Below, piece after piece: positions 4,710 to 5,730 of a DNA stretch of 64,000 nucleotides (its first letter is position 1; every line of letters starts with the position of its first letter). The position numbers and the translations under genes are program-made. The notes beneath the pieces are model-generated. The model did not search any database. It worked only from the letters and a program-made list of their open reading frames with translations, and had not been told where the DNA came from. This DNA is from Escherichia phage vB_EcoM-Sa45lw, in sequence record MK977694.1, one strand, 5' to 3'.

Positions 4710-4785
4710 TGGTCGAGGCAGTAGGGATCGAACCTACGACCTAGGACTTAGAAGGTCCTTGCTCTTCCTTCTGAGCTATGCCCCG
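4710..4785 (-). tRNA. tRNA-Arg (anticodon UCU)
   Basis: Hand-folded cloverleaf; anticodon loop CU-UCU-AA; T-loop GGTTCGATCC; CCA encoded. Confidence 0.75.
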
Positions 4786-4789
4786 TAAT

Positions 4790-4865
4790 TGGGGTGACCG
4801 ATGGGAGTCGAACCCATGACTACGAGAATCACAATCTCGAGTTCTACCAACTGAACTACGGCCAC
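4790..4865 (-). tRNA. tRNA-His (anticodon GUG)
   Basis: Anticodon loop UU-GUG-AU, C73 discriminator, T-arm ATGGG-TTCGACT-CCCAT, CCA encoded; no G at -1 in the gene. Confidence 0.65.
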
Positions 4866-4979
4866 ATTAATACCTACTCCAACAATCAAGATGTCTTCAC
4901 ACGAAATTAAGAGAAGAGTGATCAGTTCAACCCCTATAATCGCGTCAAGTAGATATTAATGTGACAGTTGTCACAAATT

Positions 4980-5054
4980 TGGCGGACGTGATAGGATTCG
5001 AACCTATAACCAATCGCTTAACAGGCGATCGCTCTGCCATTGAGCTACACATCC
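4980..5054 (-). tRNA. tRNA-Asn (anticodon GUU)
   Basis: Acceptor GGATGTG/CACGTCC, D-arm GCTC..GAGC, anticodon loop CU-GUU-AA, T-loop TTCGAAT, CCA encoded. Confidence 0.75.
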
Positions 5055-5058
5055 AAAT

Positions 5059-5145
5059 TGGTGGGGAGTGATGGAGTCGAACCACCCGAGTCGCAATGAC
5101 AATGAATTTACAGTCCACACCGCTACCTCTACGGGATAACTCCCC
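5059..5145 (-). tRNA. type II tRNA, probably tRNA-Tyr (anticodon GUA)
   Basis: 87 nt with long variable arm; acceptor GGGGAGT/ACTCCCC; loop CU-GUA-AA; GACTGTAAAT..GTCAT..CGACT resembles bacterial tRNA-Tyr; D-arm not cleanly resolved by hand. Confidence 0.5.
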
Positions 5146-5157
5146 TAATTCATAATT

Positions 5158-5232
5158 TGGTGGCCCTGGGTGGAATTGAACCACCATCTGGCGATTATGA
5201 GTCGCTTGCTTGAACCTTCCAGCTACAGGGCC
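5158..5232 (-). tRNA. tRNA with CAU anticodon (T4 tRNA-Ile type via lysidine, or Met)
   Basis: Acceptor GGCCCTG/CAGGGCC; anticodon loop CU-CAU-AA; T-loop TTCAATT; CCA encoded; identity Ile versus Met cannot be decided from sequence. Confidence 0.65.
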
Positions 5233-5233
5233 T

Positions 5234-5309
5234 TGGTGCTGATTGACGGAATCGAACCGCCGACCTTCTCATTACAAGTGAGTTGCTCTACCTACTGAGC
5301 TAAATCAGC
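5234..5309 (-). tRNA. tRNA-Thr (anticodon UGU)
   Basis: Acceptor GCTGATT/AATCAGC; anticodon loop CU-UGU-AA; T-loop TTCGATT; CCA encoded. Confidence 0.8.
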
Positions 5310-5314
5310 AAAAC

Positions 5315-5404
5315 TGGCGGAGGTGATAGGATTCGAACCTATGAATCGCCGGAGCGACTGCCGGTTTTCAAGACCGGTGCATTCAACCACTCTGCCACAC
5401 CTCC
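5315..5404 (-). tRNA. tRNA-Ser (anticodon UGA), type II
   Basis: 90 nt; GGAGGTG TG GCAGAGTGGTTGAATGC start; loop CU-UGA-AA; long variable arm; CCA encoded. Confidence 0.8.
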
Positions 5405-5406
5405 AG

Positions 5407-5480
5407 TCTCCATACAAGGATTTGAACCTTGGACCTCCTGATCCCAAATCAGGCGCTCTACCAAACTGAGCTACACGGAG
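5407..5480 (-). tRNA. tRNA-Pro (anticodon UGG), CCA not encoded
   Basis: Acceptor CTCCGTG/TATGGAG; loop UU-UGG-GA; T-loop TTCAAAT; 3' end abuts tRNA-Ser as in the T4 Pro-Ser dimeric precursor. Confidence 0.8.
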
Positions 5481-5490
5481 TAAATTAAAT

Positions 5491-5564
5491 TGGAGCGGAT
5501 AATGAGAATCGAACTCACATCATCAGATTGGAAGTCTGAGGTAATACCATTATACGATATCCGC
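5491..5564 (-). tRNA. tRNA-Gly (anticodon UCC)
   Basis: Acceptor GCGGATA/TATCCGC; anticodon stem TCAGA/TCTGA; loop CU-UCC-AA; T-loop TTCGATT; CCA encoded. Confidence 0.8.
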
Positions 5565-5569
5565 AAATT

Positions 5570-5656
5570 TGGTGCGAGAAGTGGGACTCGAACCCACAAG
5601 GAAATCATTCCGCAGCATTTTAAGTGCTGTGCCTTTACCAATTTGACCATTCTCGC
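5570..5656 (-). tRNA. tRNA-Leu (anticodon UAA), type II
   Basis: GCGAGAATGGTCAAATTGGTAAAGGCACAGCACTTAAAATGCTG...; loop CU-UAA-AA; long variable arm; CCA encoded; matches the T4 tRNA-Leu pattern from memory. Confidence 0.85.
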
Positions 5657-5657
5657 G

Positions 5658-5730
5658 CTGGGAATAAAGGACTCGAACCTTTGCATCCTGGAATCAAAAT
5701 CCAGTGCCTTACCAACTTGGCTAATTCCCA
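5658..5730 (-). tRNA. tRNA-Gln (anticodon UUG), CCA not encoded
   Basis: Acceptor TGGGAAT/ATTCCCA; loop UU-UUG-AU; T-loop TTCGAGT; directly abuts tRNA-Leu as in the T4 Gln-Leu dimeric precursor. Confidence 0.8.

Follow-up and report, generated by a model that had tools for sequence, protein, structure and literature searches.

An eleven-gene tRNA region of T2 type in Escherichia phage vB_EcoM-Sa45lw, with a conserved folded RNA abutting a tRNA-His gene that lacks an encoded G-1

Here we describe a tRNA gene cluster found in a window of 64,000 nucleotides (nt), that is, the whole stretch of DNA that was analyzed, from Escherichia phage vB_EcoM-Sa45lw (sequence record MK977694.1; all positions are given as window coordinates). 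The explanation that we favor, at a probability of roughly 85%, is that this is a T-even (Tequatrovirus) tRNA region of the T2 type, free of endonuclease genes and holding 11 functional tRNA genes, and that the processing, function and cassette origin of these genes, together with a separate tRNA-His module, can be accounted for jointly. The most noteworthy part would be that module, in which a conserved folded RNA is directly followed by a tRNA-His gene that has T instead of the expected G at position -1.

Eleven tRNA genes on the minus strand

Scanning of the whole window with ARAGORN gave 11 tRNA genes, all on the minus strand and spanning exactly 4710-5730, with none outside that interval. 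In the order of transcription they are Gln(UUG), Leu(UAA), Gly(UCC), Pro(UGG), Ser(UGA), Thr(UGU), a gene with a CAU anticodon, Tyr(GUA), Asn(GUU), His(GUG) and Arg(UCU), as listed in Table 1. Ten of the 11 passed with the Rfam tRNA covariance model RF00005, at 59-74 bits compared with a gathering score of 29, and these ten are cloverleaf tRNAs by two independent detectors. A CCA end is encoded by nine of the genes and is missing from Gln and Pro. At the Gln-Leu junction the discriminator end of Gln (...CCCAG) is followed by a single C and then by the start of Leu, and at the Pro-Ser junction the discriminator end of Pro (...GGAGA) is followed by CT and then by the start of Ser. A first-pass annotation of this DNA had given the same gene count, coordinates and anticodons, and had described Gln-Leu and Pro-Ser as abutting pairs with no CCA on the upstream member; the ARAGORN scan and the junction sequences agree with this. 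The anticodons and the Asn and His genes also held in the covariance-model analysis, but the Tyr gene was not scored as a tRNA by Rfam, so that the label 'putative', which had been given to Tyr, was apt for this gene alone. Two features lay outside that annotation, namely that the 114 nt between Asn and His are a conserved structured RNA, and that the cluster is followed by an open reading frame (ORF) and by rnaD and rnaC.

Table 1. The tRNA cluster and the leader RNA, in the order of transcription.
5657-5730, minus strand: tRNA-Gln (UUG); ARAGORN; Rfam 67.4 bits; without encoded CCA
5570-5656, minus strand: tRNA-Leu (UAA); ARAGORN; Rfam 59.3 bits; CCA encoded; same as T4 in alignment
5491-5564, minus strand: tRNA-Gly (UCC); ARAGORN; Rfam 65.8 bits; CCA encoded
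5406-5480, minus strand: tRNA-Pro (UGG); ARAGORN; Rfam 66.8 bits; without encoded CCA
5315-5404, minus strand: tRNA-Ser (UGA); ARAGORN; Rfam 63.7 bits; long variable arm; CCA encoded
5234-5309, minus strand: tRNA-Thr (UGU); ARAGORN; Rfam 72.9 bits; CCA encoded; 1 nt from the CAU tRNA
5158-5232, minus strand: tRNA with CAU anticodon, assigned to the Ile2 type (AUA-reading); ARAGORN; Rfam 59.9 bits; T2 allele; CCA encoded
5059-5145, minus strand: tRNA-Tyr (GUA); ARAGORN; long variable arm, weak D and anticodon stems; below the Rfam gathering score
4980-5054, minus strand: tRNA-Asn (GUU); ARAGORN; Rfam 74.1 bits; CCA encoded
4866-4979, minus strand: structured leader RNA upstream of tRNA-His; fold z-score and stem covariation
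4790-4865, minus strand: tRNA-His (GUG); ARAGORN; Rfam 65.1 bits; G1-C72, C73 and CCA encoded
4710-4785, minus strand: tRNA-Arg (UCU); ARAGORN; Rfam 66.1 bits; T2-type allele; starts 4 nt past the CCA of His

In a permissive scan with the models of the tRNA clan, the best match of the Tyr gene was to the tRNA-Sec model, with 29.9 bits, under the gathering score of 47 for that model. The low score of Tyr is explained by a C-C mismatch in its D-stem together with G-U pairs in the anticodon and T stems. The gene is the same as that of T2 and a single T-stem base apart from the tRNA-Tyr of T6, which has been detected by northern blot, although it is less stable than the host tRNA (PMC13096335). 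Comparing Tequatro-, Karam-, Jiaoda- and Winklervirus and T5, we found both partners changed and pairing preserved at 10 of the 24 predicted pairs. This covariation, together with the expressed twin in T6, argues that the Tyr gene is functional although its model score is low.

With regards to the CAU gene, all full-length matches listed from 5424 E. coli genomes are annotated as tRNA-Ile, at 71-82% identity, whereby an identity as initiator or elongator tRNA-Met was rejected; the label 'Met' given by ARAGORN reflects the anticodon only. The acceptor stem reads GGCCC.../...GGGCC, giving the pairs C4-G69 and C5-G68, which are TilS determinants. By these comparisons the CAU tRNA is of the Ile2 type as in T4, with a body like that of host ileX/ileY; in tRNAs of this type the CAU anticodon reads AUA once it carries the lysidine modification.

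A T2-type cassette downstream of Thr

The 2-kilobase (kb) region was found to be 99.9% identical to Escherichia phage JY01 (Straboviridae, Tequatrovirus), and 1110 phage records match it; when searching with the cluster only, 956 records gave any match and 317 of these covered at least 80% of the cluster. Since the JY01 record has the same 11 tRNA genes annotated in the same order, the cluster is already known and is ordinary for its phage group, and the number of genes as such adds no novelty. Clusters of 10-11 tRNA genes are annotated in AR1, JY01, Sf22, wV7, KRT47 and many other Tequatrovirus records. The location, between the ORFs on the ipI/57B side (trna.2-4) and the e.x/rnaC/rnaD side, is also as in JY01, T4, T2 and AR1. 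AR1 annotates ten tRNA genes (Arg, His, Asn, Tyr, Met(CAU), Thr, Ser, Gly, Leu and Gln) while a segD-like endonuclease gene (1712-2362 of the retrieved AR1 locus) takes the place that Pro has in the window. Many close relatives likewise carry a GIY-YIG or HNH homing-endonuclease gene within the cluster, whereas the window allele has none.

In T4 the order is Gln, Leu, Gly, Pro, Ser, Thr, Ile(CAU), segB, Arg, rnaD and rnaC. The block from Gln to Thr is near-identical between T4 and the window, with Leu, Gly and Pro being identical, Gln, Ser and Thr differing by a few bases, and the Gln-Leu and Pro-Ser junction sequences being the same. Beyond this block, T4 has segB between Ile and Arg but lacks Tyr, Asn and His, while the window lacks segB, has CAU and Arg bodies strongly unlike the Ile(CAU) and Arg of T4, and has one ORF intervening between Arg and rnaD, which directly adjoin in T4. 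Neither the Ser gene of T4 (followed by TAA) nor its Ile gene encodes CCA, whereas the counterparts in the window and in T2 do; with CCA encoded, the repair steps by which CCA is restored in T4 should be dispensable for the Ser and CAU tRNAs of the window.

It was instead the sequenced T2 (AP018813) that resembled the window downstream of Thr. Its order is Gln, Leu, Gly, Pro, Ser, an ORF, CAU, Tyr, Asn, Arg and a 116-amino-acid ORF, at the same genomic position and between the same flanking ORFs, without segB and with the same 116-amino-acid ORF after Arg. The CAU, Tyr and Asn genes of T2 are 100% identical to those of the window and Arg differs by 2 nt. The differences are that T2 has an ORF at the place of Thr, and that Asn and Arg are 4 nt apart in T2, whereas in the window the leader and His (about 194 nt) are cleanly inserted after the CCA of Asn and before Arg. 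The arrangement without segB is known for T2L, RB1 and RB3 (Brok-Volchanskaya et al. 2008, PMC2330249), and SegB of T4 prefers to cut inside the Asn gene of T2L, thereby driving replacement of a region of about 1250 base pairs (bp) that contains Met(CAU), Tyr, Asn and Arg (PMC2330249); the Asn gene of the window is, as said, that of the sequenced T2.

Judged from alleles and gene order, the cluster is thus a T2-type cassette (CAU, Tyr, Asn and Arg, with no segB) downstream of Thr and not T4 plus three genes, and with CAU and Arg being T2-type alleles the apparent expansion is best read as a cassette difference at that place. The first-pass annotation had presented the cluster as expanded from the eight genes of T4, with eight of its members corresponding to the T4 set. 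The 11 genes are real, but not as three additions, and the correspondence stands for Gln to Thr but fails for CAU and Arg. A remark that the acceptor stem of His differs from that of T4 tRNA-Arg had no bearing on the finding, although the Arg gene of the window does differ from that of T4.

The annotation of T6 gives yet another arrangement, with Gln, Leu, Gly, Thr, CAU (a T4-type gene) and Tyr, and then a gene labelled 'serine recombinase', which we take to be segB from the map in the T6 paper. As a side observation, the annotated tRNA-Thr of T6 (643-717 of the retrieved locus) has the 5' end of Pro (..CTCCGTG) joined to a Thr body, with a 5' acceptor strand that is mismatched to the Thr 3' strand, and looks like a Pro/Thr fusion resulting from a Pro-Ser deletion.

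Codon demand and support against tRNA-cutting defenses

Codon usage was compared between 55 long ORFs of the window and a host set of 42 long ORFs, taken from 50 kb of DNA like that of E. coli K-12, whereby the ratios in Table 2 are to be read as a comparison of ORF proxies with a limited host sample.

Table 2. Codon use in the window relative to the host sample.
tRNA-Arg: AGA, 9.0x
tRNA-Ile2: AUA, 4.0x
tRNA-Ser: UCA, 3.2x
tRNA-Gly: GGA, 3.1x
tRNA-Thr: ACA, 2.6x
tRNA-Leu: UUA, 2.1x
tRNA-Pro: CCA, 1.8x
tRNA-Gln: CAA, 1.4x
tRNA-Tyr: UAU and UAC, 1.48x
tRNA-Asn: AAU and AAC, 1.48x
tRNA-His: CAU and CAC, 0.62x

All codons served by the eight classical tRNAs are commoner in the window, as was to be expected. 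For the three genes that the first-pass annotation had singled out as extra to T4, the demand fits for Tyr and Asn but does not for His, and codon supply accounts for Tyr and Asn moderately well, not for His.

The tRNAs with GUN anticodons, four in number, make up the target set of colicin E5-type anticodon nucleases, and Tyr, Asn and His belong to them. An alternative to codon supply is that the three genes would mainly be counter-defense spares or decoys, replacing or shielding host tRNAs that have been cut. The tRNA-Tyr of T6, a near twin of that of the window, weakens Septu immunity when over-expressed, with escape mutants amplifying its gene, and deletion of the T6 tRNA region gives greater sensitivity to Septu (PMC13096335). 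The AriB nuclease of PARIS cuts host tRNA-Lys, Thr(UGU) and Asn(GUU), with probable products for His(GUG) too, and T5 variants of the Lys, Thr and Asn tRNAs restore infection under PARIS (bioRxiv 10.1101/2025.02.04.636281), while the tRNA-Tyr of T5 acts against retron-Eco7 (PMC13096335; bioRxiv 10.1101/2025.02.04.636281). The under-use of His codons by the phage, for which supply fails as an explanation, points in the same direction. However, Septu cuts the T6 tRNA-Tyr as it cuts that of the host, and escape needs amplification of the gene, so that the single copy of the wild type is insufficient (PMC13096335). The literature searched gave no defense system that is directed mainly at tRNA-His, and for Tyr and Asn codon supply is still sufficient. 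What links the window to the proven cases is sequence similarity, most closely in the one-nucleotide distance between its Tyr and that of T6. We consider defense as the main purpose of these genes to be a serious possibility, though not the probable one, and suggest by analogy that support against tRNA-cutting defenses may be a second and non-exclusive role beside codon supply.

A conserved folded RNA between Asn and His

Asn and His are separated by a leader that is a folded and conserved RNA. Its 114 nt have a minimum free energy of -32.7 kcal/mol, at z -4.36 versus shuffled sequences, and fold as a small hairpin (4960-4975) followed by an element that is closed by a terminal stem of 13-15 bp. 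The arms of this stem lie at about 4947-4960 and 4866-4880, with the 3' arm reaching positions -1/-2 of His. When a 15-pair stem was tested over 11 distinct leaders from 6 genera, 95.2% of the cells were paired and four pairs had changes on both sides, with a covariation of 0.308 versus a shuffle mean of 0.222 (0 of 500 shuffles reached 0.308) and of 0.04-0.12 with slid partners. The unit of leader and His is also found in other genera, mostly between Gln and His, being 80-92% identical where the interior could be aligned. Further phages have a leader with an unrelated interior and the terminal stem kept, and that of CR9, with an entirely different sequence, still folds with its two ends paired. 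About 200 records hold His and the leader at no less than 95% identity, and the leader is absent from T2. It is not annotated in the records of JY01, AR1, Entb_43, ATCCa, RCIP0032 or Vettismorki.

A precedent is seen in T5 (record NC_005859), whose annotation places the last base of a 106-nt 'RNAIII, stable RNA with unknown functions' directly next to tRNA-His. In the fold of this RNA III (z -2.85) its own 5' and 3' ends are joined by a 12-bp stem, and the tRNA-His is annotated at 78 nt, having one 5' T more than the 77-nt call made by ARAGORN. The T5 unit is hence like that of the window in having T at -1, C73, CCA and an end-paired RNA of about 100 nt abutting the 5' end of His. The two differ in that -2 is U in T5 and A in the window, and in that the T5 RNA is annotated as a stable RNA whereas the element of the window is known from its sequence alone.

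It could be argued that the interval between Asn and His is instead a signal at the level of DNA or transcription, i.e. a promoter, a terminator or a target for recombination or for an endonuclease, with the stem being incidental. It does sit at a cassette junction, and an interior that is highly variable between genera, with conserved ends, might fit a recombination site. However, a consensus scan gave no minus-strand site of sigma-70 promoter type or resembling a terminator in 4866-4979; the only match in the leader was a weak plus-strand promoter-like site at 4968-4997, and the total number of sites was no higher than in shuffled sequence. The double compensatory changes that keep the stem furthermore indicate selection on a folded single strand, leaders of unrelated sequence (CR9 and the T5 RNA III) adopt the same end-to-end pairing beside tRNA-His, and the counterpart in T5 carries its annotation as a stable RNA. 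We therefore regard a signal of this kind as improbable.

The motif UGUCAC in the leader (4960-4975 with 4861-4865) was seen to be a copy of the 3' acceptor strand of His. In the fold of the precursor it pairs with the 5'-terminal GUGGC of tRNA-His, giving a leader stem of about 19 bp, and in the window it can alternatively pair with an upstream GUGACA; the motif is found in the leaders of Karamvirus but not of Jiaodavirus. These modeled pairings may represent possible alternative structures, or a helix of a size suited to RNase III.

A tRNA-His gene with T at position -1

As the first-pass annotation had stated, His lacks an encoded G at -1: the alignment with hisR of E. coli has T (position 4866) where hisR has G. 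The two genes are 80% identical, with G1-C72, U2-A71, G3-C70, C73, CCA and the GUG anticodon loop being the same, and unlike for E. coli hisR the G-1:C73 pair cannot form from the encoded sequence of the phage gene. An alternative register, in which G4865 would serve as G-1, was rejected because it displaces U8 and the D-arm, and because the U2-A71 pair fixes the register.

Further tRNA-His genes were collected from other Tequatroviruses, from Karam-, Jiaoda-, Winkler-, Kagamiyama-, Gualtar- and Cinqassovirus, and from two Vequintavirinae, one mycobacteriophage and T5. Position -1 was T in all 17 distinct phage contexts, while -2 was A in 13, C in two and T in two, and C73 was kept throughout. 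At the other ten tRNA genes of the window, -1 was T in five, A in four and C in one, and the invariance of T-1 at His therefore exceeds a general preference of leaders. Across 13 sequences, 14 of the 21 pairs of the His cloverleaf were kept through double changes, and G1-C72, U2-A71, G3-C70, C73 and the anticodon were invariant. In the searchable literature we found no description, for T4-like phages, of a phage tRNA-His that lacks G-1 or carries U-1, or of such a gene following a structured RNA.

The least probable explanation, that His and perhaps Tyr are hitch-hiking or decaying genes brought in by recombination or homing traffic in a hypervariable region, would agree with the region being a hotspot of gain and loss (segB in T4, a segD-like gene for Pro in AR1, no Pro or Ser in T6, an ORF for Thr in T2), with His being present in only part of the Tequatrovirus records (the approximately 200 with His and leader versus the 956 with cluster matches), with the poor charging expected without G-1 and with Tyr falling under the Rfam gathering threshold, but decay is contradicted by the compensated stem pairs of His and its T-1, which with a varying -2 indicates purifying selection, while Tyr covaries and has an expressed and active twin in T6, and the T5 record describes the tRNA-His of T5, once changed to an amber anticodon, as an effective suppressor.

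A joint explanation and the points against it

In the explanation that we favor, the 11 genes, lying head to tail on one strand and followed by a small ORF, rnaD and rnaC, would be transcribed as polycistronic precursors and cut by host RNase P and 3'-end enzymes. Gln-Leu and Pro-Ser would pass through dimeric intermediates, with Gln and Pro receiving their CCA afterwards, as expected from classical work on T4 and from the identical junctions. The classical eight tRNAs would decode codons that end in A or are rare, and that are 1.4-9 times as frequent in the AT-rich phage as in the host sample; Tyr and Asn would serve amino acids that are about 1.5 times commoner in the phage, and the extra tRNAs may back up translation when host tRNAs are cut, as their close relatives do (Tyr of T6 with Septu; Thr and Asn of T5 with PARIS). 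The difference from T4 would have come about by cassette exchange at the segB site and by a separate His module inserted between Asn and Arg, made up of an end-stem RNA of approximately 95-114 nt and, directly following it, a tRNA-His with U-1. By analogy with T5, the leader would be released as a stable RNA upon cutting of the 5' end of His, and the invariant U-1 would either be kept in the mature tRNA, where it would substitute for G-1, or enforce a defined RNase P cut.

Several points weigh against this explanation. Codon supply does not explain tRNA-His, as its codons are under-used, and the codon comparison itself rests on ORF proxies and 50 kb of host DNA only. Loss of G-1 lowers the efficiency of the histidyl-tRNA synthetase (HisRS) of E. 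coli more than 100-fold (PMC3064791; PMC5499578), and a phage tRNA-His that is cut canonically should therefore be a poor substrate for HisRS. RNase P is moreover reported to keep G-1 owing to U-2, G-1 and the G-1:C73 pair (PMC5499578; PMC3064791). Of these determinants the phage tRNA-His has only C73, with A and not U at -2, so that the known rules give no reason to expect that U-1 is retained; that U-1 stays on a mature tRNA is suggested, by analogy, only by the coordinates given for tRNA-His in the GenBank record of T5. A profile of 12 T4-like leaders, used with nhmmer, found nothing in the T5 locus at E<=10, and blastn-short with the leader against RNA III of T5 gave only words of 7-9 nt, for which reason we call the two analogous in position and architecture and not demonstrably homologous. 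Finally, we infer here that the genes are co-transcribed, that dimeric intermediates form and that the leader RNA is stable, and we likewise infer where mature His begins. With regards to a U-1 that is retained, it has been reported that the base of G-1, for the most part bound without specificity, serves chiefly to place the critical 5'-phosphate (PMC9976931), so that U-1 could plausibly serve HisRS.

A wider and tentative proposal, which we hold to be rather doubtful, is that there exists a phage class of 'U-1' tRNA-His, found in at least seven T4-like genera, Vequintavirinae, T5 and mycobacteriophages, which has abandoned G-1 as an encoded identity element and for which a non-canonical 5' cut set by the helix leaves U-1 in place, with the leader being a new family of stable RNA. 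If this were true, U-1 would give the host HisRS its extra 5' nucleotide and phosphate without a G-1:C73 pair, tRNA-His of enterobacterial myoviruses and T5 would be fused to an upstream RNA whose terminal helix reaches -1, and the excised leader would be comparable to rnaC and rnaD of T4 and to RNA III of T5.

Downstream genes and further observations

Three further features follow the cluster on the same strand (Table 3). The 116-amino-acid ORF has counterparts at the same position in AR1 (AR1_139) and T2 (EcT2_00138). For the flanking ORFs, Pfam gave no families and PHROGs gave only families of unknown function. The homologues of rnaD and rnaC are 97-99% identical to those of T4; neither is annotated in JY01 or AR1, and among the Tequatrovirus records examined only that of T4 annotates both. 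Searching Rfam at E<=10 over 4300-6100 gave no known family on the leader, rnaC or rnaD. The matches to sX4, YrlA and Plastid-ycf2 obtained in that search were dismissed, being weak and located on tRNA genes, as was a plus-strand 'terminator' at 4321-4337, which is the 5' hairpin of rnaD read on the wrong strand.

Table 3. Features downstream of the tRNA cluster.
4341-4691, minus strand: 116-amino-acid ORF between Arg and rnaD; phrog_3355, unknown function
4227-4344, minus strand: homologue of T4 rnaD ('species 2' small stable RNA); 116 of 119 positions identical
4082-4220, minus strand: homologue of T4 rnaC ('species 1' small stable RNA); 137 of 139 positions identical

Some observations were also made on individual tRNA genes. 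The anticodon arm of Gln reads CTGGA TTTTGAT TCCAG in the window versus TAGCA CTTTGAC TGCTA in T4, T2 and T6, i.e. with a fully compensated stem and with loop positions 32 and 38 also differing, while the rest of the gene is identical; AR1 has the allele of the window. In Thr, positions 27:43 are A/A in the window, a mismatch atop the anticodon stem, versus C-G in T4, T6 and AR1. Positions 36-41 of the phage tRNA-Asn are U36-A-A-G-C-G, whereas for the host tRNA-Asn the reported sequence around the cut site of PARIS AriB is UAAUC|C (bioRxiv 10.1101/2025.02.04.636281); the phage tRNA replaces U39 of the UAAU motif, which might affect cleavage by AriB. In Karam-, Jiaoda- and Winklervirus records we noted a 'tRNA-Asn' annotated at 81-85 nt, which is too long for a class I tRNA (2293-2377, 2301-2382, 2300-2384 and 2399-2479 in four retrieved loci), and several other gaps of 100-250 nt between tRNA genes in the same clusters. 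The long 'tRNA-Asn' and these gaps may be further unannotated structured RNAs or unusual tRNAs.

Implications

The tRNA sets of T-even phages vary by cassette exchange around sites of homing endonucleases, and the comparison of the window with T4 and T2 shows this cleanly. The extra genes, for Tyr, Asn and His, are of the kind that is now linked to escape from defenses that cut tRNAs. The most noteworthy point, as far as comparison of the collected genes can tell, is what appears to be a widespread class of phage tRNA-His with C73 and an invariant U-1, located behind a folded RNA that is conserved. For tRNA-His, G-1 is regarded as an almost universal identity mark, and HisRS of E. coli is reported to need it. 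The existence of such a class could have three possible meanings, namely that HisRS accepts U-1, that the tRNA is used uncharged, or that the upstream RNA redirects RNase P.

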